A stretch of 32,029 nucleotides of DNA from a bacterium (GCA_027622355.1 JAQBZT010000002.1:1-32029); one strand, 5' to 3'. Numbered from the stretch's first letter, positions 470 to 32,029 are shown. Notes: generated by a model not told the origin, from the letters alone. Translations and numbers: made by a program.

Positions 470-1480
470 TTGCTTCTCAGTGTCCTGGATCAGTCCCCGA
501 TCCGCACGGGCGGAACCCCCTCCGAAGCGGTGCACGAAACCCTCGCCCTCGCCGAAGCCGCCGAGCGCCTGGGCTATCACCGCTACTGGGTCGCCGAGCA
601 TCACAGCACGCCCGGCTTCGCGGGCTCGACGCCCGAGGTGCTCCTGGGCCAGATTGCGGGGCGCACGAAGCAGATGCGCGTCGGCTCGGGCGGGGTGATG
701 CTCAGCCATTACAGTTCCTTCAAGGTGGCCGAGAACTTCCGCATGCTGGAGACGCTCTACCCCGGCCGGATCGACCTCGGCATCGGCCGCGCCCCCGGCA
801 GCGATCGGCGCACCGCCTCCGCCCTGGCGCACGGCCCCGGGGCGCTCGGCATCGAACACTTCCCCGATCAGATCGAAGACCTCCTCGGCTTCCTCCGCGG
901 GGAGTTGAAGGAGGGCCATCCCTTCCGCGGAGTGCGCGCCATGCCCGAGGGGCCCACCTGTCCCGAGCCCTGGGTCCTCGGCTCGAGCGATCAGAGCGCC
1001 AGCTACGCCGCCCATTTCGGCCTTCCCTTTTCCTTCGCGCACTTCATCAACCAGTACGGCGGCCCGCAGATCATGGCCGCCTACCGGGAGCATTTCCGCC
1101 CCTCGGCCTGGCGGGATGCGCCTCTGGGGAGCGTCGGCCTCTCGGTCATGTGCGCCGGGACGGAGGAGGAGGCTCGCCGCCACGCCGCCTGCCGCGTCTT
1201 CTGGTTCGTCCGCATCCGCACCGGCCAGCTGACGGCCATCCCCTCGGCCGAGGAGGCCGAGGCGCACGTCTACACCGAGATGGAGCGCCAACTCGCCGAG
1301 GATATCTGGAGCCGCACCATCTGGGGCACCCCGGATCAGGTGAAGGAGCAGATCGAGGCGCATCTCGCCGCCTACGGCGTGGAGGAAGCCGTCATCGTCA
1401 CCGTCTGCCACAGCTTCGAGGCGAGGATGCGCTCCTACGAGCTCATCGCCGGGGCCTTCGGGCTGGAGGGGAGGGGTTGA
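470..1480 (+). CDS. LLM-class flavin-dependent oxidoreductase (luciferase-like monooxygenase, YhbW/MsnO8-like)
   Basis: The N-terminus LSVLDQSPI...LAEAAERLGYHRYWVAEHH...GSGGVMLSHYSSFKVAENFRMLETLYPGRIDLGIGRAPG is characteristic of this family. TTG start with a GGAG about 7 nt upstream. Confidence 0.85.
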   Translation: MLLSVLDQSPIRTGGTPSEAVHETLALAEAAERLGYHRYWVAEHHSTPGFAGSTPEVLLGQIAGRTKQMRVGSGGVMLSHYSSFKVAENFRMLETLYPGRIDLGIGRAPGSDRRTASALAHGPGALGIEHFPDQIEDLLGFLRGELKEGHPFRGVRAMPEGPTCPEPWVLGSSDQSASYAAHFGLPFSFAHFINQYGGPQIMAAYREHFRPSAWRDAPLGSVGLSVMCAGTEEEARRHAACRVFWFVRIRTGQLTAIPSAEEAEAHVYTEMERQLAEDIWSRTIWGTPDQVKEQIEAHLAAYGVEEAVIVTVCHSFEARMRSYELIAGAFGLEGRG

Positions 1481-3274
1481 TCAGGTCTTCAGGCTCGTCT
1501 TCCTGAGCCTAAAGTCACCCGGCGTGACTTCGAGGCACTCGCCCTCTCGCAGAAATTCGAGCGCCTGCTCGAGGCTGAACTGCTTGGGCGGGATGAGCTG
1601 GATGGCGGCGTCCGCTCCCGACGCGCGCATGTTGGTGAGCTTCTTCTCTTTCGTGATGTTGACGGCCATGTCGCTCTCGCGGCTGTTCTCGCCGATGATC
1701 ATCCCCTCGTAGATCTCATCCACCGGGCTGACGAAGAGCGTGCCCCGTGCCTGAAGGTTGTTGATGGCATAGCCGGTGGCCTTGCCGGTCCGATCGGCGA
1801 TGAGCGCCCCCGTCACCCTTCCCGGGATGTCGCCCGACCAGGGCGACCAGCCGCCGAAGATGTGGGTGAAGAGGCCCGTCCCCCGGGTGTCGGAGAGAAA
1901 CTCGCTGCGGTAGCCGATGAGTCCCCGGCTCGTGATGCGGAAATCGAGCCTTGCCCTTCCCCTGCCGTGGTTCACCATCTTCACCATCTTTCCCTTCCGG
2001 CCGCCGAGCTTCTGGGTGACGATGCCGATGTACTCCTCGGGCACGTCCACCACCACATCCTCCATCGGTTCGAGGGTCTTGCCCTCCTCCTTGCGGAGAA
2101 GGACCTCGGGACGGCCCACCGTCAGCTCGTATCCCTCGCGGCGGAGCTGTTCGATCAGAACGGCGAGCTGAAGCGTGCCCCGGCCCGAGACGCGGAAGGC
2201 GTCGGGGGTACCCGTCTCCTCGACGCGGAGGGCGACGTTGTTGCGCGCCTCGCGCAGCAGCCGTTCGCGAATCTGGCGCGAGGTGAGGAACCGGCCGCTC
2301 CTTCCCGAAAAGGGAGAATCGTTCACGCGGAAGGTCATGGCGATGGTCGGCTCATCCACCCGGATGGGGGGGAGGGCGCGCGGGTCTTCGGGATCGGCGA
2401 TGGTGTCTCCGATGTCCACGTCCTCGAAGCCGGCGACGGCGACGATCTCGCCGGGTCCCGCCGCAAGGATGGGCACCCGGGAGAGGCCCTCGTAGTGGAA
2501 GAGCGAGGTCACATCCCCGGGGATCTCCTTGCCGGTATCGTCGACGACAAGGGCGGCGCTCTTGGCGGTAATCCGCCCGCTGCGCACCCGGCCGATCGCG
2601 AGGCGGCCGATGTAGTTGTCGTATTCGGTCCGGGAGATGAGCATCTGGAGGGGGACGCCCTCTTCGTACGTCGGGGCGGGGATGGCCGTGAGCAGGGTTT
2701 CGAAGAGGGGCTGGAGGTTGGCCGCGAGATCATCCGGCGCGGCGCCCGCCCTCCCGTCTCTTGCGATGGCGTAGAGAACGGGGAATCCGAGCTGCTCCTC
2801 CGAGGCGTCGAGATCGATGAAGAGGTCGTAGATCTCATCGAGGACCTCTTGGGCCCGCGCGTCCGCCCGGTCCACCTTGTTGATCACCACCACGAAGGGA
2901 AGGGCATACGCGAGGGCTTTCAAAACGACGAAGCGGGTCTGCGGGAGGGGGCCCTCCGAGGCGTCCACGAGGAGCATGACGCCGTCCACCATCGAAAGGA
3001 TGCGCTCGACCTCGCCGCCGAAGTCGGCGTGCCCCGGGGTGTCCACGATGTTCAGGCGCACCCCGCGGTAATTGACGGAGCAGTTTTTCGCCATGATGGT
3101 GATGCCCTTTTCCCGCTCGAGGTCCATCGAGTCGAGGACGCGGGTGGCCACCTCCTGCCCCTCGCGGAAGATGCCGCTCTGCCAGAGCATGGCGTCCACG
3201 AGGGTGGTCTTGCCGTGATCGACGTGGGCGATGATGGCGAGGTTGCGGATGTCGGCGCGGGTGATGATGGGCAT
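1481..3274 (-). CDS. typA: Translational GTPase TypA/BipA
   Basis: [19 protein letters not shown] (G1), [14 protein letters not shown] (G3), NKVDR (G4), and a full-length EF-G-like architecture of 597 aa. Confidence 0.95.
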
Positions 3275-3415
3275 CGGGAATCCTGCGTGGCAAGGTTCAT
3301 GGCGGCGCGCTGGCCGGTCCCCCGGAGCGGGGGACGCCGGATAATGGCCGAAATGGAGGTGGGATTCAAGGGCCGGGGCGGGGGCGGCGCTGCCGCAGGC
3401 GCTTTGGAGAGCGGG

Positions 3416-5038
3416 TCAATCGGGGAAGGTGTAGCCCGCAAAGTCCTCGCGGAGCTTGGTTTTGAGGAGCTTGCCCGTCGCCGTATGGGGGAGTTCCTCC
3501 ACGAAAATCGCGTCGTTCGGGATGCACCATTTGGCGATTTTCCCCTCGTAGAAGGCGAGGAGGTCTTCCTTCGCGAGGTTTGCCCCCTCGTTCAGCACGG
3601 CGAGGAGCAGGGGCCGCTCCCCCCATTTGGGGTGGTCCGCCGAGATGACAGCGGCTTCTTTCACGTCGGGATGGCCGAAGGCGATGTTCTCGAGCTCGAT
3701 GGAGCTGATCCACTCCCCGCCCGACTTGATGACATCCTTCGTCCGGTCGGTGAGGTGCATGTAGCCGTCGGGATCGATGGTGGCCACATCCCCGGTCTGG
3801 AACCACCCGTCCGCGTCGTGCACGTCGCTCTCTTCCTCATTGAAGTAGCGGCTGCACACCCAGGGCCCGCGCATTTTCAGGTTGCCGAAAGCCACGCCGT
3901 CGCGGGGGAGCTCCCCGCCGTCATCCCCCGTGATCTTGAACTCGACGCCGAAGGGGGGCCGGCCCTGCTTGATCTCGATCTTGAGGCGCTCTTCTTCGGG
4001 AAGCCCCTCCATCTTCCGTTTGGGCAGGTTGACGGTGCCGATGGAGCTGCATTCGGTCATGCCCCAGGCGTGGATGGCCGCGGTGCCGTACTTGCGGAAT
4101 TCCTGGATCATCGAGCCGGGAAGGGCCGAGCCGCCGATGACGGCGCGCTTGAGGGAGTCGATCCGCTTGCCGGATTTCTTCAGGTAGGCCAGGAGGAGCA
4201 TCCAGACGGTGGGGACTCCGGCGGTGACAGTCACGCCCTCGGTCTCGATCAGCTCCTGGAGGCTCTCCCCGTCCATCTTGGGGCCGGGGAAGACGAGCTT
4301 CGCCCCCGCCAGCGGCGCGGCATAGGGAAACTCCCACGCGTTGACGTGAAACATCGGCACCACCGGCATCGCCACTTCCCGGGCGGAGAGGTGGAGCGAA
4401 TCGGGAAGCGCCACGGCGTAGGAGTGAAGGACCGTGGCTCGGTGGCTGTAGAGGGTGCCCTTGGGGTTTCCGGTGGTCCCCGAAGTGTAGCAAAGCGCGG
4501 AAGCTGTGTTCTCGTCAAAGACCGGCCATTCGTAGCCGTCATCCTCCGCGGCGAGAAGCCGTTCGTAGCACAGGGCGTTCTTCAGCTTCGTCTTGGGCAT
4601 GTTGGCCTCGTCCGTCATGATGACGAACCCTTTCACGCCCGGGATTTGGCCGGCGATTCCCTCCAAGAGGGGAACGAAGGTGAGATCGGAAAAGATGTAG
4701 GCATCCTCGGCGTGATTGATGATGTAGGCGATCTGCTCGGGAAAAAGGCGCGGGTTGATGGTGTGGCAGATGGCGCCCGAGCCGGAGACGCCGAAGTAGA
4801 TCTCGAAGTGGCGGTAGCCGTTCCAGGCGAGGGTGGCGATGCGATCGCCCATGTTCACGCCGAGCCGTCCAAGCGCCTTGGCGAGTTTTTTCGAACGGCG
4901 GTTCGCGTCCGCATAGGTGTAGCGGTGAATCGGGCCTTCCACCGTCCGGGAAACGATTTCGGTGTCGGCGTGGTTTTGGGCCGCGAATTTGAGAAGCGTG
5001 GAAATCAGCAACGGAAAATCCATCATCAGCCCGCGCAT
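3416..5038 (-). CDS. Long-chain fatty acid--CoA ligase (AMP-dependent synthetase/ligase family)
   Basis: AMP-binding motif [13 protein letters not shown], then GWFQTGD and a C-terminal ...[13 protein letters not shown] start the gene at the internal ATG ([11 protein letters not shown]...) because GGGGGAAAAG lies just upstream. The 5161 start in the ORF track looks like a spurious extension. Confidence 0.85.
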
Positions 5039-5294
5039 TTTCTTTTCCCCCTGCCGGAAAGGGCGCCTGTCCAAGTTGCGGGCCGCTGCCCGGTTCCGTG
5101 TCGAAACGGTTCCGAAGATTTTAAGGATTCCGATAGTATGGTAACTATCATTCGTACACATTCAGGTCAATGGAATCCATGTGCCTGGGGCGGGAGCGGT
5201 TTTTCCTTCGTCCCCGGTATGGAAAGAGGCAGTTTACCGATGGAATTTCTTTTTTCATGATGCCATGGCACATCCCGAGGAGGGACTTGCGCAG

Positions 5295-5693
5295 ATGCCG
5301 TTCTACCGGTTCTCCGAGATGAAGAAGAAAGACTCCGATGTGGCTGTGGGACAGATGCAGAGCGTACCGGGAGAGCTCATGAAGGTCGGCGTAATGACCT
5401 TCCCGGAAGGAAAGGGCCCCCCGGCGCATTTTCATCCGAACGAGGAGCAATATGTTCTCGTCCTCGAGGGCAAGGTGCGCATGATTGTCGGCGAAGAGGA
5501 GGAAACGGTAGAGAAAGGGCACATCGTTCACCTTCCCCGGGGCGTGGTCCATGCGATGCGCATCCTGGAAGGGCCGGCGGTGTTTTTCACGGCGAAATCT
5601 CCGGCCGGAGATGGGGGCCTGACACAGGATTACCGCGAGGTGGATGGCGGCGATGCTTATGAGAGGCGGCTCGATTCCGCCGCGGGAAAATAA
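5295..5693 (+). CDS. Cupin domain protein (paralogue 1 of a tandem pair)
   Basis: Cupin motifs GPPAHFHPNEEQYVLVLEGKV and HLPRGVVHAM. Start chosen at MPFYRFSE because GAGGAGGG lies about 9 nt upstream and it aligns with the start of the downstream paralogue. Confidence 0.75.
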   Translation: MPFYRFSEMKKKDSDVAVGQMQSVPGELMKVGVMTFPEGKGPPAHFHPNEEQYVLVLEGKVRMIVGEEEETVEKGHIVHLPRGVVHAMRILEGPAVFFTAKSPAGDGGLTQDYREVDGGDAYERRLDSAAGK

Positions 5694-5725: not shown

Positions 5726-6127
5726 ATGGCATTCTACAAAGTTTCGGAAATTCCAAAGCGCGATGTGAGCAACATGGTTGAGGGCGGCTTCATGCAGAGC
5801 GTCTCGGGCGAATTCATGAAAGTCGGCATGGTGACCTACCCCGAGGGGTTCGGCCCGCCCGCGCACTTTCACCCGAACGAGGAACAGTACATTCTCATCA
5901 TGGCGGGCAAGGTGCATATGGTGCTCGGCGATGAGGAGCGCATCGTCGGGAAGGGCGATCTCGTCCACATCCCGCGGAACGAGAACCACGCCATCCGCAT
6001 CGTCGAGGGCCCCGCGGTGTTCTTCACGGCGAAGAGCCCGGCGGGGGACGGGGATTTGAATCAGGACTACAACCGCGCGGAAAGCGCGGACGCCATCCGG
6101 GAGAAACTCTCTGCGGATAACGCTTGA
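5726..6127 (+). CDS. Cupin domain protein (paralogue 2 of a tandem pair)
   Basis: MAFYKVSE..., GPPAHFHPNEEQYILIMAGKV, EGPAVFFTAKSPAGDG. Colinear with the upstream cupin over its whole length. Confidence 0.8.
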   Translation: MAFYKVSEIPKRDVSNMVEGGFMQSVSGEFMKVGMVTYPEGFGPPAHFHPNEEQYILIMAGKVHMVLGDEERIVGKGDLVHIPRNENHAIRIVEGPAVFFTAKSPAGDGDLNQDYNRAESADAIREKLSADNA

Positions 6128-7017
6128 TGGAAGCCGCTGTTCTCTTTGCGGTCGGAGCCTCCTTTCTTCTGGCGTGCCGGGACATCACCGGGCGGCTCGG
6201 GATGCGGGAAGTTGATCCTCTTACCGGGACAGCCGTTTCCGCTTTCGTGGGGTTGCCGGTTCTGGCGCTGGTGTCTTTTTTTCTGGGGGATTTTTCCGCG
6301 CCCTGGCCCGAGCTGGGTTGGCCTGTTTTGTATATTGCCCTGGCGGGAATTTTCCGGATCACCGCCGCCCGGACGCTCCTCTTTTCGGGGATGAAACATA
6401 TCGGTGCGGCGCGGGCCGGTTCCCTGGCGACGACCAACATTTTCTTCGCCATGATTTTCAGCGTCCTGTTCCTGGGTGAGCGGCTGACTGTCACGATAGT
6501 ATTGGGCACGCTTCTCATCGTGGCCGGCTGCCTGCTTCTGGGCCGGAGCCGGGCGGAGCAGGTGGCGGGCAGCGTGCACGCATCCCTCCGGGGGATCACG
6601 CTGGCGCTCCTCAGCGCGCTGGCTTTTGGCCTCTCGGTGGGGTTTGTGCGCCCGGGCATTCACGCGTTTGCCTCTCCCAACCAGGCGAATCTTTTTGCCA
6701 ACATCGTGGGTTTTCTGACCTACCTGCCGCTGTTGTGGGGGCGCTCCCCCGCCGCGGAGATGAGACGCTGGAGCCTCTCATCATGGGCTTGGCTGGTGGC
6801 CGCCGGAGGGGTCGCCAGCATGGGGGTGACGCTGTTCTATTTTGCCTTGGCGCGGGCGCCGGTCGTTGTTGCTGCCCCGATTGCACAAACCCGGCCGGTC
6901 TTTGTGGTCTTGTTTTCATGGTTGCTGTTGCAGCAGCAGGAGCGGGTGAATTGGCGGGTGAGTGTCGGGACCCTTGTCATTGTGGCGGGAGCGGCGCTGC
7001 TGATCGTCGGCCGCTGA
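6127..7017 (+). CDS. EamA/DMT-superfamily transporter
   Basis: About 10 hydrophobic segments arranged as two EamA-like halves. The ATG overlaps the cupin stop (TGATG). An alternative TTG start lies at 6124. Confidence 0.75.
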   Translation: MEAAVLFAVGASFLLACRDITGRLGMREVDPLTGTAVSAFVGLPVLALVSFFLGDFSAPWPELGWPVLYIALAGIFRITAARTLLFSGMKHIGAARAGSLATTNIFFAMIFSVLFLGERLTVTIVLGTLLIVAGCLLLGRSRAEQVAGSVHASLRGITLALLSALAFGLSVGFVRPGIHAFASPNQANLFANIVGFLTYLPLLWGRSPAAEMRRWSLSSWAWLVAAGGVASMGVTLFYFALARAPVVVAAPIAQTRPVFVVLFSWLLLQQQERVNWRVSVGTLVIVAGAALLIVGR

Positions 7018-7044
7018 ACCCGCTTTCCCTTGAAGAGAGGAGCG

Positions 7045-7890
7045 ATGGTTGTGGAGAAGCAACTTACCGATAGCGTCTATTATCAGAATATCTATCCCAC
7101 CTCCGGGTGCGTGGTGACCGATGCGGGGGCGGTGGCCGTGGACGGGCCATCCTTTCCTTCGGACGCCATCGCATGGCGGTCGTTCATCGAGAAAAAGGGA
7201 GGTCTCCGCTACCACATCAACAGCGAGCACCATGCCGACCACATCGTGGCGAACCGCTATCTCGGCGCGGATGTGATGGTTTCGGGGGAATACACGAATG
7301 CGCATTTTCTCGACTCGGTGAAATCCGACGAGGGAACAGTGGATTTCATCCGGCGCCTCAAGGAAGAAGAGGTCGTGCACATGGAGGGCTACAAGCTTCG
7401 CTGGCCTGAAATCGTTTTCCGCGATCGCCTGACCCTGGCTGTGGGCGGGCAGACCTTTCATCTGATTCATTCGCCGGGGCACACCTGGGGACAAACGCTG
7501 GTCCATGCGGTCGAGGCGCGGGTGGTTTTCACCGGGGACAATCTCACGCCGGGGATGCATCCTTTCTTTCATTCGGCGTCGGTATGGGGCTGGTTTCACT
7601 CGCTGGCGCTACTGGAGTCCCTCGATGTGGACTGGTTCGTTCCGGGCCACGGCGATCCCTGCGGAAAAGAAGAGATTGAGGTGCAGCGGACGAAGCTCCG
7701 CCGCGTCATCGGAATGGTGAAGGAGATGAAGGACAAGGGCCTGAGCCGCGAAGAGGTGCAGGAGCAGGGCGGATACATTGATGATCCCTCCCTGGATCAT
7801 CCCCGGGTGCTGGGCCCGAGGGCCCAGATGCTTGAGAAGGCAGGCCTCGGGAACATTTACGATCAACTGGATTTGCATCCGGCTTTTTAG
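7045..7890 (+). CDS. MBL-fold metallo-hydrolase
   Basis: Metallo-beta-lactamase signature SEHHADH, later HSPGHTWG and PGHGDP. Start uncertain (TTG 7030, ATG 7045 or GTG 7051). Confidence 0.75.
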   Translation: MVVEKQLTDSVYYQNIYPTSGCVVTDAGAVAVDGPSFPSDAIAWRSFIEKKGGLRYHINSEHHADHIVANRYLGADVMVSGEYTNAHFLDSVKSDEGTVDFIRRLKEEEVVHMEGYKLRWPEIVFRDRLTLAVGGQTFHLIHSPGHTWGQTLVHAVEARVVFTGDNLTPGMHPFFHSASVWGWFHSLALLESLDVDWFVPGHGDPCGKEEIEVQRTKLRRVIGMVKEMKDKGLSREEVQEQGGYIDDPSLDHPRVLGPRAQMLEKAGLGNIYDQLDLHPAF

Positions 7891-8050
7891 CGATTTTGCC
7901 GCCGCGCGCGCCGCCAGGCCGGGAAATGGGAGTTATGCGCGTTCCGGTCCTGTTTGAGAACCGTTCGGCGGACGAGTAAGATCATCGTCGGGGGGAATCT
8001 TCGGGGAGAATCATTCATCAACTCGATTCTCGAACACAGGGGAGGAGAAG

Positions 8051-8965
8051 ATGGATACCCTTCACATGGACGGCTTGCCGGTCCTTCGTGATCCGCTTTT
8101 TGTGATGGCCTTTGCCGGATGGAACGACGCCTCGGAGGCGGCGACGGACGCGGTTCGCTTTCTGGTGCGCAAGCTGAACGGGAAACGGTTCGCCTGGATT
8201 CATTCCGACCCCTATTTCCAGTACACCGATCAGCGGCCGCAGGTCAGGCTCGACGCGGAAGGAAACCGGCAGATTCACTGGCCCTCGAATGAGTTCTACT
8301 ACTGCGTCAGCCCCGAGCTGAAGCGTGATCTGATCGTCGGCATCGGCGTGGAGCCGCACATCAATTGGCGCCGGTTCAGCCGGGACGTTCTGAAGGTCAT
8401 TCACCGGAGCCGCGTTCAGATGTCGGTCACACTGGGCGCGTTTCTCGGAGGGGACCTGCATACGGAGCCGATTCACCTGATCGGTCTGGCCACCGAGCCC
8501 GCCCTGGGCGAGCGCCTGAACGTGGAGATGACGCGCTATGAGGGACCGACCGGCATCGTCGGAGTGGTGCATTCCCTGCTTCAGGATGAGGGCCACCCCG
8601 CGGTCAGCCTTTGGGCCAATGTCCCGCACTATATCGGTGGCATTTCCAATCCGAAAGCCACTCTGGCCCTGCTACAGTGCTTCTCGCGGTTTACCGAGGT
8701 GAGCCTGGACCTGGGCGGCATGGAGCGCTCCGCCGGCCGCTTCAACGATCAGGTGGAAAGCATGATCGCCCAGAATCCGCAAATCGCCTCCCTTTTCTCC
8801 GACGCCCAGTCGGGCAATGATTTCTCCGGAGAGATGGAGGACGACGATGATGATGCGGACGATGCTCCGGCGGTCGAGGGAGAGCTTCCTCCCGGCCGCG
8901 AGATGGCGGATGAGATCGAACGGTTATTCCGTCGCAGGCGGGGCGGAGAAGATTCGGAGAAGTAG
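8051..8965 (+). CDS. PAC2 (proteasome assembly chaperone 2-like) family protein with an acidic C-terminal tail
   Basis: LRDPLFVMAFAGWNDASEAATDAVRFL... and ...YEGPTGIVGV...LWANVPHY resemble the bacterial PAC2/DUF75 family. GGGGAGGAG RBS upstream of the ATG. Confidence 0.6.
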   Translation: MDTLHMDGLPVLRDPLFVMAFAGWNDASEAATDAVRFLVRKLNGKRFAWIHSDPYFQYTDQRPQVRLDAEGNRQIHWPSNEFYYCVSPELKRDLIVGIGVEPHINWRRFSRDVLKVIHRSRVQMSVTLGAFLGGDLHTEPIHLIGLATEPALGERLNVEMTRYEGPTGIVGVVHSLLQDEGHPAVSLWANVPHYIGGISNPKATLALLQCFSRFTEVSLDLGGMERSAGRFNDQVESMIAQNPQIASLFSDAQSGNDFSGEMEDDDDDADDAPAVEGELPPGREMADEIERLFRRRRGGEDSEK

Positions 8966-9054
8966 TTTTCCTCAGTTTGGCCGGAGTGGTTTCCTGTCGT
9001 TTCCGCCTCACTCTCGTTTTTTCGTGGTTTGATTCTTGCTTTTTTCAGAAGAGA

Positions 9055-9312
9055 ATGGCCGAAAGGTTTTATCAGGAGATGTTCGGCGCACCCGATGACG
9101 CGGGCGATCTCATCGGGGTGAATATCCCGCGCGTGGATGCGCCGCCGAAGGCAGAAGGATCGCCGGTATTCGCCGCAGGCCACAAGCTCTCGAATGCCCT
9201 TTACATGGTGCCCACCCTCGCCGCCATCGCCAACGTCGTTCACGATGCCACCGGAAAGAGGTTCACCCGCCTTCCCATCACCCCGGAGCGCGTCGCGCTC
9301 GCCCCCCCGTGA
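9055..9312 (+). pseudogene. C-terminal remnant of a molybdopterin-binding oxidoreductase large subunit (xanthine dehydrogenase/aldehyde oxidase/CoxL family)
   Basis: The translation ends ...VNIPRVDAP...LAAIANVVHDATGKRFTRLPITPERV. This matches the conserved extreme C-terminus of the family (..Y.IP...D.P... PAIANAi.DAtG.R...LPiTPEkv). The roughly 700 upstream residues of such a subunit are absent. Confidence 0.45.
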
Positions 9313-26971: not shown

Positions 26972-28297
26972 TCAGAAGGAGAGCGCGTTGGGGGATGAGG
27001 CGTAAAGAATGTGGTCCTTTTTGTCTGGATGGATCGTGATGGTGGCGAATCGCCGGTATTGCCGCAGCTCGAGCGGGGCGATGACGAGGAGAAGATTTTG
27101 GGTGTTGGAAGGCTTGCCGCGGAGCAGGCTTTTGAGCCGGGCGTTGGTGAGCCGCTCTTTGTAGTAGCGAAACTCGAGCTGGTGGCGCCCCGGCGGGAGC
27201 TCTCCGCTCCACAGATAAATTCTGCCGGGGAGCGTTCGCCAGGTCCGCGTGTCCGCCCCCGTCTGGGTCATCCCGGAGAGTACGCTCGCGGTGCCGCCGA
27301 TGGCGTAGGCAGCCAGGGCGGCGATGGCCAGTGCCCCCCGGGTGTTTTGATCCCTGGACTGATTGGCGGCATTCGCCAGCGCGGTGCCTGTCGCGATGGA
27401 AGCCACCCCGATATCTCTCGTCGTATTCTTGAACTGAACCTTGCCCTTGAGGATGTGATCGAATGCCCGCCCGCCGCGCGTGGTGGCCTGGAAGCCCAGG
27501 TCATCCACCCAGGTGGCCGACCGGACGGGGACTTGGTTTCGGAAGACGACAACATGCTGAATTTGCGGGCGCGGAACGGCAAATTTGACGATATGATCTT
27601 CCTTGGAGTGGAGATATTTCACCGGCCCCCGGTTCGTTGTGGCCAGGATGAGCAGGTTTTCGTTCAACTTTGGAATTTTGAGATAATTCCGAAGCTTTTT
27701 CATCTGGATAAAATTCTCGCGGGCATTTTCCGGCGAGTCGATTTTTTGGGTGATGCGGCCTTCGAGATAGTCGAAGACGGCGAAATCGGAGCGATGCTGG
27801 GATTCCTCCGCAAAAGCGTCCTGAATCTGCCCGCTCCGGAAGGCGGCGCGCGCGTTGTCGAGTTCGCCGTCCCGGTAATAGAGGATGCCTCGGTAAAAGA
27901 ACACCATCGCCCGCTCGTAGGGATCTCCCTTGAAGTCCTTGATGTCTTCCTTGAACCAAAGGCTCCGGGCTCTGTTGGCGCTTTCGGTGTTGGCGAAAAT
28001 GGTGTTGATCTCGCGGATGGAGAGATCGAAATAGCGCTTGGCGATGGAATGGTCGCCCCGGCGCATGGCGGTCAGGGCGATGTTGTTCCAGTTGAGAACC
28101 TGGTTTCGCTTCCCTTCTTCCAGGAGTTCGCGGATCAGGCGGTGCAGATAGGGGGGATGTCCCTGGATGGCGGCCTGGTACTCGCTTTCGGGAACGGCGC
28201 GGCGCTCGGCGTAGGTGGCGCACCCGGCCGCGAGAAAGAGGGCGAGGGCGAGAACGGAGAAGTGCCCGATGTGCCGAATCATCATTTTCCGGTGCAT
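26972..28297 (-). CDS. Hypothetical lipoprotein (TPR-like N-terminal region)
   Basis: The signal peptide and lipobox FSVLALALFLAAGC, native GC-rich codon usage and 441 aa. No catalytic motif recognised. Confidence 0.55.
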   Translation of the reverse strand: MHRKMMIRHIGHFSVLALALFLAAGCATYAERRAVPESEYQAAIQGHPPYLHRLIRELLEEGKRNQVLNWNNIALTAMRRGDHSIAKRYFDLSIREINTIFANTESANRARSLWFKEDIKDFKGDPYERAMVFFYRGILYYRDGELDNARAAFRSGQIQDAFAEESQHRSDFAVFDYLEGRITQKIDSPENARENFIQMKKLRNYLKIPKLNENLLILATTNRGPVKYLHSKEDHIVKFAVPRPQIQHVVVFRNQVPVRSATWVDDLGFQATTRGGRAFDHILKGKVQFKNTTRDIGVASIATGTALANAANQSRDQNTRGALAIAALAAYAIGGTASVLSGMTQTGADTRTWRTLPGRIYLWSGELPPGRHQLEFRYYKERLTNARLKSLLRGKPSNTQNLLLVIAPLELRQYRRFATITIHPDKKDHILYASSPNALSF

Positions 28298-28389
28298 GAA
28301 GCTGGCGACCTCGCGCTGAAAGGAACGCTTATCCGGCTCAAATCGAGCGCGCTTTTATTATCGTATTTTATATCCGCCCGGCAAAACTC

Positions 28390-28531
28390 GGTAGTGGGTC
28401 CGTCTGCTTGTTTTTCTTGTCATTCCGAGCGCCGGAGGCGCGAGGAATCTGCTTTTCCACAGCAGATTCCTCAGTCGCTGCGCTCCTTCGGAATGACACC
28501 ACGGGTCCATTGTGCGAACTGACCCACTACC
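28390..28531. mobile_element. MITE-like element: 11-bp terminal inverted repeats (GGTAGTGGGTC / GACCCACTACC) enclosing a 79-bp imperfect palindrome (28419-28497)
   Basis: The TIRs are exact reverse complements. Inner arms GTCATTCCGA/TCGGAATGAC and GAGGAATCTGC/GCAGATTCCTC flank a 9-nt loop. No coding capacity. Confidence 0.4.
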
Positions 28532-28556
28532 CAAAATTCGCTTCTTTTTGTCTCTG

Positions 28557-28608
28557 GTACGGACGCAGCCATCGGCATGGATGCGTCCATACATATACTG
28601 GGACGCAT
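28557..28608. repeat. Three copies of a GGACGCA core in alternating orientation, spaced about 20 bp apart (14-bp imperfect inverted repeat plus a third copy)
   Basis: GTACGGACGCAGCC (28557-28570), its near reverse complement GGATGCGTCCATAC (28579-28592, 12/14), and GGACGCAT (28601-28608). Confidence 0.4.
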
Positions 28609-28730
28609 CATGGTTCCCTCTTCGGGGCGCCGCCCACGGGAGAGAAAATCGCCTGCGCGGGCGCGGGAATCTACCCGCTATGGGGTGTCCAACAAAACCC
28701 TGGGGCGGAGGACAATTCTCAAACAATAAT

Positions 28731-30398
28731 TTATTTACTATTCGCTAGGAGGGTTTTAAGTCTGTCTTTTATATTTGAATAAACAGCGGTCAATCTTGCC
28801 TTTGCCTTGTCGGTTAAAAGGGCGGTGTGTGCAAGAGCATCTCTGATAGGCTTATATTCAGCGGCATCTCTTGCAAGGCTTGCCTTCTTTAGGTCTTTTT
28901 TGGCATCAACGAGATTTGCAAGGTCGTCCATGGCCAGGTAGCTTAATTTTGTATTGTTTTTTCTAATCTCAATACTTAGATTCCCTTTATTTTTATTTTC
29001 GTCTTCTTTTTTTTCCCATTCCTTATATTTACTTGTTGCTTCCTTCGATAATTCCACTTTTTCTTCTTGTATGAATCTTCTGATCAGATTCTCTGAAATG
29101 AAACATTCGGCATAAGATGAAAAATTGTATGTTGCATCATCCGCCAGGTCATCAACCCAGCCATCGATTTTTTTCCTATTTTTTGAATCTTTAGGAAGAC
29201 CGTATTCTGCTGAAACAGCATTATATAGTTCTCCGGCTTTTCTATCTTTTCTGGAGATACTCGTGTCTTCCGAATCCCCGTCTTCGCGGTGTTTTCTTCT
29301 CCAAGGATCCCAATCAGCAAGGATTTTACTTATGATTTTATCTCTTAAGTAGTTTAAGAACTCTTGGTATTTGGGGTCATCTGCAATTATACCTTCGCGG
29401 CTACTAGTAAATCGATCCATTTGTTTATCATCAAGCGCATTATAGTGAATTTGACCATACAGATAACTTTCGGCCACCCTGGCCGTTGGTATGTGCCTTA
29501 ATATATCCCTTTCTCTTAAACGGCCATTTACAAATAGATCCACGCTAACCTTTTCGCCTGTGCCAAAGATATTAAGATCTCTGGGCTTTTCCACGGAAGC
29601 AATGAACCCTTTTATTCCACCTTTTACAGATATTTTTTTGCTTTCCTTAAGAGTAAATTTCTTTTTGAGTCGTGCAATGTATGGATCTTCTATGTCATCA
29701 ATTTCCCATAAAAATTGAGTCTTTTCTGCGAGATCATCTAGACATTCATGGGTTATTTTTTCTTTGTTAATAAAAATTTTAAAATTATTGTCAATGAGAG
29801 AAAATCGAAAATATAAAGCCACAATTTTTTTCAAAAATTCCAAGCTGTTCCTTATCCCATCATGGATATTTTTAAAATGGATAATGGTGCCCTTGGTATG
29901 CTTGACTGTCAGGTCCCCGAAGGTTTCTAATTTCCATCTTCCCAAAAGGTATTCTTGTGGTGTTAGGTCTTCGTCTATGGCGTTATCTAATTCACCATTA
30001 TCGATTAATCCGCCAATGTAACTTTGCCCCTTCTTTTTTGATATTACAGTAATTTTTTCTGCACACGACAGAAGCGCCAGTTTCCCAATACCTTTTCTTC
30101 CAATATACGGTCTCCCACCTGGAGAGGTTTCACTAATCTTTCGTTTTGAATATCCAATTTTCAAGAATTTATTTTGAAATTCATCCGCCGTCATACCGTC
30201 ACCGGTGTCTTTGATAAGAAAGCTGTTTTTCGTTTTATTGATATGAATGTGTCCTTCAGTAGCATCAGCATCCCAAGCATTCGATATTGCTTCACCGAGA
30301 ACTGTAGTGAAACTTCTATATAGATTTCTACCCAAATGGTTGAGAACACTCAGCGATATTTCAAATGAGAAATCTTCCTTCTTTGCTTTTTGTGTCAT
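28731..30398 (-). CDS. GHKL-superfamily ATPase (HATPase_c_3 / MORC-like) with a C-terminal helical domain carrying an R-x4-H (HEPN-like) motif
   Basis: Bergerat-fold motifs: N-box GEAISNAWDA, G1 box IKDTGDGM, G2 box GRKGIGKLA, and TKGTIIHF. A MORC-like middle region (VDLFVNGRLRERDIL). The C-terminus has YKPIRDALAHTALLT. Confidence 0.8.
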   Translation of the reverse strand: MTQKAKKEDFSFEISLSVLNHLGRNLYRSFTTVLGEAISNAWDADATEGHIHINKTKNSFLIKDTGDGMTADEFQNKFLKIGYSKRKISETSPGGRPYIGRKGIGKLALLSCAEKITVISKKKGQSYIGGLIDNGELDNAIDEDLTPQEYLLGRWKLETFGDLTVKHTKGTIIHFKNIHDGIRNSLEFLKKIVALYFRFSLIDNNFKIFINKEKITHECLDDLAEKTQFLWEIDDIEDPYIARLKKKFTLKESKKISVKGGIKGFIASVEKPRDLNIFGTGEKVSVDLFVNGRLRERDILRHIPTARVAESYLYGQIHYNALDDKQMDRFTSSREGIIADDPKYQEFLNYLRDKIISKILADWDPWRRKHREDGDSEDTSISRKDRKAGELYNAVSAEYGLPKDSKNRKKIDGWVDDLADDATYNFSSYAECFISENLIRRFIQEEKVELSKEATSKYKEWEKKEDENKNKGNLSIEIRKNNTKLSYLAMDDLANLVDAKKDLKKASLARDAAEYKPIRDALAHTALLTDKAKARLTAVYSNIKDRLKTLLANSK

Positions 30399-31450
30399 GT
30401 GTTTTCTCTAATGTGGGCATTAATGCTTCTTCCAATTATCTTGCCCAATTGGACGGGCACGGCATTCCCAATGTGTCTTCCCAGCTTTTTAAAATTTATA
30501 TCGGAAATTCTTTCATAAAACTTATAAGATTTTGGGAATGTTTGTAACAATGCGCCTTCACGTAAAGAGATAGCTCTATTTTGCCTTGGGTGTCCAAAAC
30601 GGCCCGTTCCGAAGCTGTAAAATTGTGTTGTAATTGTTGGGGATGGTTCGTCCCAACGCATTCTGCCGTATACGGAACTATAAGTTGCACCTGTTTTTTT
30701 TTGGTGACAGTCCGTTCTAAGTTTTTTGTCCCAATCTTTCCAGGAGCCGCCAGCTTTTGATTGTTTTATTCTTTGCTTGTTTAAAGACGATAATTTATAA
30801 GTGCGATGGAGAGGGTCCTTGTCGCAGGGTTTCCCGTCTTGTATTCTCGGCAACTTTCCTATGATGTCTTTGACTGTTTTATAATTATCTGGTTTTTGAG
30901 TTGGATCTATTAAATTTATTTCTCCAAGTTTTGATGCAAGCAAAACTAAACGTCTTCGATTTTGTGGGATTCTGTAATCTGGGCAATGAACTATTTTCCA
31001 AGCGACGTGATATTTTAGCGTTTCCAATTCATTAACGAAGTCACGGAATACTTTGTGCTTAATAATTTGGGGAACATTCTCCATAGAAATTATAGTAGGA
31101 CGAACTCCTTTAATAATCCTTGTGAAGTGATACAAAAGCCCCCATTTCTCATTTTCTTTGCGACTCTTCATTTTTTGAGTGTGCTTTGAAAATGGCTGGC
31201 AGGGTGCACAAGCAACTAATACCTTGATGCTTTTTTCTGGAAATAACCGGTTAATACTACTGGCGGATACCTTTTGGATTTCTTTGTGTATAAAAACGGA
31301 TTCATTATTCTTCTCAAATGAATATTGGCATGAGATATCGTTGTCAATACCAGCCATAACAGGAATGCCTGACTTCACTAATCCGTGTGTGAGTCCGCCA
31401 ACACCACAAAATAGATCAACGGCTGAGATTTTCATATTCATTTTTTTCAT
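30395..31450 (-). CDS. dcm: DNA (cytosine-5-)-methyltransferase
   Basis: All canonical C5-MTase motifs are present: I DLFCGVGGL, IV APCQPFS, VI SMENV, VIII QNRRRLVLLAS, IX AISLREGALLQTFP, X GNAVPVQL. The stop overlaps the ATPase start (ATGA). Confidence 0.95.
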   Translation of the reverse strand: MKKMNMKISAVDLFCGVGGLTHGLVKSGIPVMAGIDNDISCQYSFEKNNESVFIHKEIQKVSASSINRLFPEKSIKVLVACAPCQPFSKHTQKMKSRKENEKWGLLYHFTRIIKGVRPTIISMENVPQIIKHKVFRDFVNELETLKYHVAWKIVHCPDYRIPQNRRRLVLLASKLGEINLIDPTQKPDNYKTVKDIIGKLPRIQDGKPCDKDPLHRTYKLSSLNKQRIKQSKAGGSWKDWDKKLRTDCHQKKTGATYSSVYGRMRWDEPSPTITTQFYSFGTGRFGHPRQNRAISLREGALLQTFPKSYKFYERISDINFKKLGRHIGNAVPVQLGKIIGRSINAHIRENT

Positions 31451-31488
31451 ATACTGATCCTTGTTGTTACAGTTTAGTCAGATATGAT

Positions 31489-31516
31489 ATTGTAACCGAG
31501 AAACATGGGGCCGCAA
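31489..31516 (-). promoter_or_regulatory. Candidate promoter of the dcm-ATPase operon (-35 TTGCGG, 16-nt spacer, -10 TACAAT on the minus strand)
   Basis: On the plus strand, ATTGTA lies at 31489-31494 and CCGCAA at 31511-31516. An AAGGA RBS lies 7 nt before the dcm ATG. A 6-bp inverted repeat GTTACA/TGTAAC (31466-31471 / 31491-31496) overlaps the -10. Confidence 0.3.
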
Positions 31517-31627
31517 CTTCTGTTTTTCAAATTCTGACCGAACAATCCTCCTCTTGGCTGTTTTTCACAGAAAGAGCCTTAAAGGCCGCGCAAAACACCC
31601 TCCAGACCTCATCGGTCGGCGGGACGC

Positions 31628-31978
31628 TCACTCCACGGGCGGATTGAAGATGGCGACCATGTGCACGTCTTCATCCGTGGTGCAGGTGTTTCTGTGCTGC
31701 GTGCCGCGGGGCATGAACACGAACTCGCCCGCCTTGTAGCGGAGCTCCCCGCCCTCGAGCTCGTAGCGTCCCTCGCCGCTGATGATGTACATCACTTCGT
31801 CCACTTCGTGGCTGTGCCAGTCGTGGCTCTTGCCCGGGCGGATATGGGATTTGTAGACCGTCACGCCCGTGCCGTCCCGCGCCTGGGTGAGGATGCCGCG
31901 GTGGCGGGCGCCGCCGGCGATCTCCTCCGATGGGATTTCGTCGGGGCGGATGATGCGGGCTTTGCTTTTAGGGCTCAT
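31628..31978 (-). CDS. Cupin domain protein
   Basis: Cupin motifs GKSHDWHSHEVDEVMYIISGEG and FMPRGTQHR. Native GC-rich codon usage. GGGGGAGAAAG RBS upstream. Confidence 0.75.
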   Translation of the reverse strand: MSPKSKARIIRPDEIPSEEIAGGARHRGILTQARDGTGVTVYKSHIRPGKSHDWHSHEVDEVMYIISGEGRYELEGGELRYKAGEFVFMPRGTQHRNTCTTDEDVHMVAIFNPPVE

Positions 31979-32029
31979 CTTTTCTTTCTCCCCCTTGCAG
32001 TAAGTTAAGGCCGCTGCGCTTTGTTTTTT

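Follow-up and report, generated by a model that had tools for sequence, protein, structure and literature searches.

A horizontally acquired two-gene module joins a C5 DNA methyltransferase gene to that of a GHKL ATPase with a probable HEPN-like effector domain

GHKL ATPases of the paraMORC type were linked to methylases, Vsr and nucleases by Iyer et al. in 2008 (PMC2292703), and in the same year open reading frames (ORFs) fused to GHKL domains were catalogued as putative restriction endonucleases (REases), including a fusion of GHKL and Ymh domains, NmeAIP (PMC2441816). A reading from 2013 took the Ymh part to be a HEPN RNase fused to paraMORC in restriction-modification (R-M) neighbourhoods, analogous to PrrC and RloC (PMC3710099). 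Two described groups are closest to the locus presented here: the NmeAI-type systems, made up of the CCGG methylase M.NmeAI, the putative R.NmeAIP and the patch-repair gene V.NmeAI (PMC3787668, PMC7973814, PMC4676702), and the BbrUII/HgiDII (paraMORC3-type) Type II systems, for which Orlowski and Bujnicki left the HgiDII-type C-terminal domain unassigned (PMC2441816). Here, we describe an AT-rich island in a bacterial DNA stretch of 32,029 nt (GCA_027622355.1 JAQBZT010000002.1:1-32029; hereafter the window, with coordinates counted from its first letter), in which a gene for a C5 cytosine DNA methyltransferase (MTase) is followed by one for a GHKL protein with a probable HEPN-like C-terminus. 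In our assessment, the pair is moderately likely to be an R-M-like module of a large mobile family, gated by methylation and carrying a swapped effector, probably with an RNase output.

The island differs abruptly from its surroundings. The gene pair has a G+C content (GC) of 0.375 and a G+C content at third codon positions (GC3) of 0.33–0.35, compared with a GC of 0.628 ± 0.02 (minimum 0.592, in windows of 2.7 kb) for the remaining 28 kb and a GC3 of 0.77–0.87 for the flanking genes. Since the island GC lies more than 12 standard deviations off the host distribution, the difference is not due to chance and horizontal acquisition is secure. The two genes are co-directional and overlap by an ATGA stop/start, forming one operon (Table 1); overlapping or abutting junctions recur between the MTase and GHKL genes of relatives. 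The original prediction, which was made from the sequence alone, had described this two-gene composition, the overlap, flanks of native composition and the lack of a third gene in the island, and each of these points stands. The cupin neighbour that it had named matches Cupin_2, no Vsr remnant or tRNA was found in the window, and an Rfam scan of 28100–32029 returned zero matches. Its description of a left junction littered with repeats was overstated, as we found a single nested palindrome there and no convincing direct repeats on either side of the island.

The MTase matches PF00145 over its full length (residues 9–343, 209.6 bits against a cutoff of 22, 1e-61) and the dcm model TIGR00675 (141 bits against a cutoff of 100.65). 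Its best match among PADLOC profiles is DrmMII (9e-103). The canonical motifs expected from the prediction are all present: in addition to the S-adenosylmethionine-binding and catalytic motifs I and IV, the translation contains ENV (as MENV), QNRRR and GNAVP, corresponding to motifs VI, VIII and X. Judged by its sequence, the window MTase is a complete C5-MTase. By homology to M.HgiDII, which has the specificity GTCGAC (PMC5867850), its target may be GTCGAC-like.

The partner protein matches the GHKL family PF13589 with 71.7 bits (cutoff 25). The N-box, G1 and G2 motifs of the prediction are present as ExxxNxxD, DxGxG and GRKGIG, and are invariant or nearly so across homologue alignments. An AlphaFold2 model of the 555-residue protein (predicted local distance difference test score, pLDDT, 75) has an α/β N-terminal two-thirds and is all-helical from about residue 340. 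By Foldseek, the full model resembles TRAP1, GRP94 and Hsp90 as well as MORC2, with E-values of about 1e-11 over roughly 430–475 columns and a root-mean-square deviation of 10–14 Å. The proposed MORC-like middle region is therefore sound, yet the similarity to MORC2 is no better than that to Hsp90/TRAP1. Within the middle domain, R334 is invariant in a 'TSSRE' loop, and may correspond to the catalytic-loop arginine of Hsp90. With all GHKL motifs and R334 kept, the protein is predicted to be competent as an ATPase. Pfam searches with the isolated middle and C-terminal segments gave noise only.

The C-terminal domain sets the protein apart. In alignments extending to 36% identity, its sole invariant residues are Y429, E436, N437, R440, R519 and H524, which fall into the family motifs 'CFhxENhxR' and 'PhR[ND]xxxHTxxLT'. 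The pair R519 and H524 is invariant in 40 sequences across this range, as befits the likely effector site that the original prediction had seen in it. Swt1/Abi-type HEPN domains also carry an acidic/arginine pair in helix 1. The spacing of R519 and H524 conforms to the Rx4-6H motif, a hallmark of HEPN domains (PMC3710099). Among the best Protein Data Bank (PDB) fold matches of the C-terminal model are Csm6 from three species, the HepT toxin and Csx1, and HEPN_Swt1 is the most recurrent non-GHKL Pfam family when relatives are scanned singly. From the invariant motifs, the helical model and these weak fold and Pfam matches, we consider a HEPN-like fold, probably of the Swt1-like kind, to be likely. 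No PD-(D/E)xK, HNH or PLD signature was found in the window protein, nor a match to PF09509 (Hypoth_Ymh) or, in Pfam or PADLOC, to DUF4263. A Foldseek search of the C-terminal model against a viral structure library was uninformative.

A profile search of 1.84 billion representative proteins recovered the C-terminal domain in just 244 clusters. Among the matches listed, nearly all are proteins of about 550–590 residues with the domain in the same C-terminal position, or fragments. The domain thus appears essentially private to this family, and has no curated model. Two representatives may show the effector domain in other architectures, one with KaiC/AAA_25/DnaB_C-type ATPase matches in place of GHKL and another with an inserted Zn-ribbon.

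The closest relationship of the pair is with the BbrUII/HgiDII systems. The NCBIfam equivalog model for these restriction enzymes, NF050001, matches residues 10–377 of the window protein (1e-86) and covers model positions 1–371 of 659. At 292 bits the match falls below the whole-protein cutoff of 550, whereas controls from Haloplanus (661 residues, 794 bits) and Burkholderia glumae (668 residues, 651 bits) pass. PADLOC models for Type II REases (REase_II) likewise match the N-terminal part of the window protein only (3.5e-43). The Haloplanus and B. glumae proteins are plasmid-borne, each encoded directly downstream of a dcm gene, and the paired MTases share 49–51% identity with the window MTase from end to end, the variable region included. 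We found a further full-length NF050001-type gene in the P2-like Escherichia phage PhiR44_1 (L091, record 6021–9069), annotated 'ParaMORC3' by the depositor and convergent to a dcm gene whose product is 51% identical to the window MTase. The phage pair is flanked by the portal gene (gpQ) and the replication gene (gpA). P2-like phage hotspots usually carry anti-phage cargo, and the pair looks like phage-borne defence cargo; our literature search found no publication on it.

Since both the MTase and the N-terminal 370 or so residues are homologous across the Haloplanus, B. glumae and PhiR44_1 systems, the MTase and the first part of its partner appear to have been inherited together. The C-terminal ends differ. 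In HgiDII-type proteins, this end is a region of about 290 residues with the conserved pattern WLLDPxW...(R)(L/I)D(I/L)...h-h-h-(D/E)-(L/M)-K-R-P, which we interpret from the motif as a PD-(D/E)xK-like nuclease site. By alignment, the WLLDPxW...(D/E)xK(R)P motif is present in the Haloplanus, B. glumae and PhiR44_1 proteins and absent from the window protein and its Paracoccus relative, where a helical Rx4H domain of about 155 residues stands instead. The window pair, then, is by homology a sister to the BbrUII/HgiDII Type II systems with a swapped effector end. In the sister group, the gene for the methylase M.BbrII is essential by transposon sequencing (PMC5514069), as would be expected if its partner attacks unmethylated self DNA.

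The NmeAI-type systems show the same arrangement with another C-terminus. Two N. gonorrhoeae chromosomes (2.17 Mb), wrongly filed as plasmids in the plasmid collection, bear such a locus in the order dcm, GHKL protein with a C-terminal Ymh/TIGR02391 domain, and Vsr. The gonococcal GHKL protein, like the window's, matches NF050001 in its N-terminal part (2e-46) and carries an Rx4H domain at its C-terminus; this domain, however, is a true Ymh domain (TIGR02391, 8.6e-48; PF09509, 2.9e-25), whereas that of the window protein has no detectable sequence similarity to Ymh and lacks a Pfam model. The Neisseria MTases are 35–38% identical to the window MTase, and their loci include the Vsr gene that the window copy lacks. 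The gonococcal locus (L087, NZ_CP119142.1, 1549445–1557479) is decayed, with dcm frameshifted into at least two ORFs, the GHKL-Ymh gene split at about 4352/4542 and Vsr intact. Taken together, the alignments describe one dcm and GHKL chassis with at least three alternative predicted C-terminal effectors, namely PD-(D/E)xK-like, Ymh-HEPN and HEPN-like.

Other defence systems share single aspects of this architecture. VcSduA, a GHKL-type Shedu protein (paraMORC3, type I-D), requires both its ATPase and its nuclease residues for anti-phage activity (PMC12137116). From its description, it resembles the window protein in having an ATPase of the GHKL type at the N-terminus, a middle part like a clamp and a nuclease-type effector at the C-terminus, all in one polypeptide. 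VcSduA differs in that its effector is a DUF4263 PD-(D/E)xK DNase and in that it works alone, without a methylase, whereas the effector of the window protein is HEPN-like and its gene is paired with that of a C5-MTase. PrrC, RloC and the CoCoNuT Type IV systems couple an NTPase to a HEPN RNase in or beside DNA-modification-based immunity (PMC3710099; for CoCoNuT, PMC11090510). These systems use ABC or McrB-type NTPases beside a separate restriction enzyme, whereas the window has a GHKL ATPase and no separate restriction enzyme. WonAB of V. cholerae, also considered, is unrelated, being an OLD-ABC ATPase with a nuclease. Our literature searches found no experimental study of the GHKL-HEPN-like variant.

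These comparisons bear on how new the module is. The original prediction held that the pair does not match a classical R-M architecture. Given the REase_II and NF050001 matches, and an order of MTase, REase and optional Vsr that is standard for 5-methylcytosine (m5C) Type II systems, this part of the claim is not supported. It had also noted the lack of a nuclease motif, which holds for the window protein itself and not for the sister family with its PD-(D/E)xK-like C-terminus. As for whether the pair belongs to a characterised family, the MTase and the N-terminal two-thirds of the partner do match one, and the effector domain does not. With the GHKL and HEPN(Ymh) form already catalogued (PMC2441816, PMC2292703, PMC3710099), the claim of novelty is weakened but not destroyed and stands as partly supported. 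What is known is the kind of system, from comparative genomics, and the sister restriction family; what is new is the C-terminal domain that lacks a curated model.

To follow the module beyond the window, we scanned one genome per species and found at least 576 loci, the best 80 of which were analysed for linkage. Full-length members of the family number in the thousands, and most are unnamed or labelled 'ATP-binding protein'. The best 80 loci are spread over dozens of bacterial phyla and several archaeal lineages at 54–67% identity; because such identity extends across bacterial phyla and archaea, we regard the module as mobile. An MTase homologue lies immediately upstream on the same strand in 70 of the 80, immediately downstream in three and elsewhere in the flank in four, and is absent from three. 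With an MTase nearby in 77 loci, the functional pairing that had been proposed is conserved. In one exception (L052), the MTase is a divergent C5-MTase on the opposite strand. Of the 72 loci for which sufficient sequence was available, 30 (about 40%) have Vsr as the next gene downstream, and no further gene recurs inside the module in the 80 loci. A full-length pair, its ATPase 44% identical to the window's, is also carried by the 20-kb conjugative plasmid pBM153 of Paracoccus tegillarcae (L088, 1–5659). The plasmid pair adjoins a recombinase gene and a second, unrelated dcm-vsr pair, placing two m5C systems side by side.

Most copies (78 of 80) are stand-alone pairs or triplets. The most recurrent families among the 135 immediate outside neighbours of the module in the 80 loci are all related to R-M or defence, comprising N6_Mtase, N6_N4_Mtase, ResIII, HNH_2, SWI2_SNF2, Eco57I, HsdM_N, PLDc_2 and PIN, together with the PADLOC profiles mad2, Type I and III MTases, REase_III and DrmC. 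Housekeeping genes, such as those that border the window pair, account for many of the other neighbours. The commonest single defence profile beside the module is mad2, a component of MADS, at five of the 135 neighbours (best E-value 6e-58). In two metagenome-assembled genomes, of Planctomycetota and Deltaproteobacteria (L019, 1–7683, and L013, ~950–5367), the GHKL-HEPN-like gene directly follows DrmA-DrmB-DrmC, and no C5-MTase occurs within the fetched flank. Class 2 DISARM comprises DrmA, DrmB and DrmC together with DrmMII, and this placement agrees with DrmMII being the top PADLOC profile for the window MTase. In some genomes, the module may be an accessory to DISARM. Searching the window by tblastn with the L019 proteins, we did not find DrmA, DrmB or DrmC.

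The best reading of these data keeps the R-M-like logic of self and non-self that was predicted at the outset. The C5-MTase would methylate a short site in host DNA and so mark it as self, while the GHKL protein would act as a dimeric, ATP-driven clamp that surveys DNA. Unmethylated target DNA, whether from a phage, a plasmid or the host itself after loss of the MTase, would be the trigger. We propose that ATP-driven dimerisation of the N-terminal parts then joins two C-terminal HEPN-like domains, which would form a composite Rx4H active site and cleave nucleic acid. RNA is the most probable substrate, so that the outcome would be growth arrest or abortive infection and not direct restriction of DNA; this RNase step is the least certain of the mechanism. 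That a GHKL ATPase can control a nuclease at the C-terminus has an experimental precedent in VcSduA. In the roughly 40% of relatives with Vsr, this protein would repair T:G mismatches arising from deamination of 5-methylcytosine. More broadly, though we hold this only tentatively, the family could be a widespread minimal module in which a GHKL clamp senses unmethylated DNA and a HEPN-like RNase provides the readout, giving 'restriction' by abortive infection on a chassis with interchangeable PD-(D/E)xK, Ymh-HEPN and Swt1-like HEPN effectors.

Several observations weigh against this explanation, most of them concerning the effector domain. The all-helical AlphaFold2 model of the C-terminal domain is of moderate confidence (pLDDT 71), and its best PDB fold matches by Foldseek, with E-values of 0.07–7 and TM-scores of about 0.35, are not significant. 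The HEPN_Swt1 matches lie below the gathering threshold and were obtained with 2 of 27 and 5 of 150 relatives (best E-value 6.8e-4); the window's own C-terminal sequence matches no Pfam HEPN family. PDB sequence-profile searches with two C-terminal alignments returned nothing relevant, and hhalign gave a probability of 0.13% between the C-terminal profile and a single Neisseria Ymh sequence, a weak test with an effective sequence number (Neff) of about 2. The locus in the window is surrounded by housekeeping genes and not by a defence island. The GTCGAC target, too, is drawn from an MTase identity of about 50%. In a site-avoidance test on the pooled host flanks of L007–L086 (536 kb), GTCGAC was the most depleted of 64 six-base palindromes when a maximal-order Markov null was used, with 77 sites seen and 135 expected. 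With a first-order null its rank fell to 20, and in bootstraps over loci it came first in only 29%. As the signal depends on the null model, we rejected GTCGAC avoidance as firm evidence of MTase specificity.

Three other explanations were weighed against the one we favour. If the GHKL protein were a classical Type II enzyme, it would cut unmethylated DNA site-specifically, through the Rx4H domain or some other unrecognised site. The PADLOC REase_II and NCBIfam BbrUII/HgiDII matches point this way, as do an MTase-REase-Vsr gene order like that of m5C Type II systems, the listing of GHKL-fused ORFs as putative REases in REBASE-based catalogues (PMC2441816) and the weak depletion of GTCGAC in host flanks. 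However, it is the non-nuclease two-thirds alone that matches the restriction family, well short of its cutoff, and the window protein lacks the PD-(D/E)xK-like module that true members have. The characterised proteins with the Rx4H/ENxxR pattern are metal-independent RNases (PMC3710099), and the related 'R.NmeAIP' is itself still putative. We therefore consider direct DNA restriction unlikely, though deserving of serious attention.

Less probable still is a module for addiction (post-segregational killing) with little or no role in defence, in which the MTase would act like an antitoxin, the GHKL-HEPN-like protein would be the toxin and the pair would stabilise itself on mobile DNA. Much of what is seen would suit it: the extreme mobility across bacterial phyla and archaea with foreign composition in the window, the conjugative-plasmid copy beside a recombinase, the tight translational coupling, the essential sister methylase M.BbrII, and the many loci, including the window's, that lie among housekeeping genes. 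Yet addiction and defence are not mutually exclusive in R-M systems, and the recurrent R-M and defence neighbours, the DISARM-embedded copies and the hotspot position of the sister system in a P2-like phage all suggest a defence role. The GHKL protein could instead be a repair accessory, a MutL-like partner of Vsr in very-short-patch T:G repair and not a toxin. A GHKL domain followed by a transducer-like middle is the architecture of MutL, 30 of 72 relatives encode Vsr just downstream, and MutL and Vsr interact functionally in E. coli, as cited in PMC2292703. This account is very improbable, as more than half of the loci, the window's among them, lack Vsr, the invariant Rx4H and ENxxR motifs would have no role, and the corresponding part of the sister proteins is a nuclease or HEPN domain; Vsr, moreover, accompanies many ordinary m5C R-M systems (PMC7973814).

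The genes around the island encode a TPR-containing protein on one side and the Cupin_2 protein on the other, and a TRAM/U5 RNA methyltransferase is also found in the surroundings. Since no convincing direct repeats border the island, no insertion mechanism can be assigned. A scan for promoters and terminators gave signal no better than shuffled sequence. The nested palindromic element lies in a spacer of host composition on the downstream side of the GHKL gene, between it and the TPR gene. Its outer arms read GGTAGTGGGTCCGT and ACTGACCCACTACC, and its inner hairpins include GAGGAATCTGCT/AGCAGATTCCTC. No second copy lies in the window, and Rfam has no match to it. The element could be a terminator, an insulator or akin to repetitive extragenic palindromic (REP) elements or miniature inverted-repeat transposable elements (MITEs), and its membership in the module is uncertain.

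Table 1. Coordinates of the features of the island, its two products and related proteins. Positions refer to the window unless a locus is given.
Feature	Position	Strand	Evidence or remark
AT-rich two-gene island (MTase, then GHKL-HEPN-like gene)	28731..31450	-	GC and GC3 contrast
C5 cytosine DNA methyltransferase, 351 aa, HgiDII/BbrUII-type, DrmMII-like	30395..31450	-	profile matches
MTase motif I, FCGVGG (S-adenosylmethionine binding)	31394..31411	-	translation of coordinates
MTase motif IV, PCQ (catalytic Cys84)	31196..31204	-	translation of coordinates
ATGA stop/start overlap	30395..30398	-	minus strand reads CACATGACA; translational coupling
GHKL ATPase + Hsp90/MORC-like middle + probable HEPN-like C-terminal domain, 555 aa	28731..30398	-	profiles, model, alignments
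GHKL (Bergerat-fold) ATPase domain, ~residues 10-200	29799..30371	-	PF13589, 8e-20
N-box EAISNAWD (ExxxNxxD)	30270-30293	-	coordinates verified
DTGDG (DxGxG)	30195-30209	-	coordinates verified
GRKGIG (GxxGxG)	30084-30101	-	coordinates verified
Middle/transducer domain, ~residues 201-370	29289..29798	-	Foldseek; common to BbrUII/HgiDII model up to position 371
'TSSRE' loop, R334 invariant	29394-29408	-	homologue alignment
All-helical, probable HEPN-like effector domain, residues 400-555 (~155 aa)	28734..29201	-	AlphaFold2 model, weak fold/profile matches
Helix-1 motif E436-N437-L-I-R440; E, N, R invariant	29079..29093	-	alignments, coordinates verified
R519-D-A-L-A-H524, Rx4H; consensus R[ND]xxxHT	28827..28844	-	alignments, coordinates verified
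Nested palindromic element	28390..28531 (approx.)	.	inverted repeats; RNA fold -76.6 kcal/mol, z = -5.1
WLLDPxW...(D/E)(L/M)KRP proteins	L089 4028-6013; L090 3995-6001; L091 3495-5453		alignment

If the RNase reading is true, the module would offer a tractable two-gene system in which methylation-based discrimination of self from non-self feeds an abortive-infection effector. Such a link from methylation to an RNase was predicted by comparative genomics in 2013, and we found no demonstration of it in the literature searched. The HgiDII/BbrUII 'restriction enzymes' would then be one output variant of a modular GHKL sensor. Because PADLOC REase models match the N-terminal part only, tools for finding defence systems will probably count these loci among ordinary Type II R-M systems. 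Thousands of proteins whose present label is 'ATP-binding protein' or 'DNA mismatch repair protein' could receive a new annotation. The family is also of wider evolutionary interest for its parallel with eukaryotic sacsin, which combines Hsp90-like ATPase modules with a C-terminal HEPN domain, and with the MORC ATPases.

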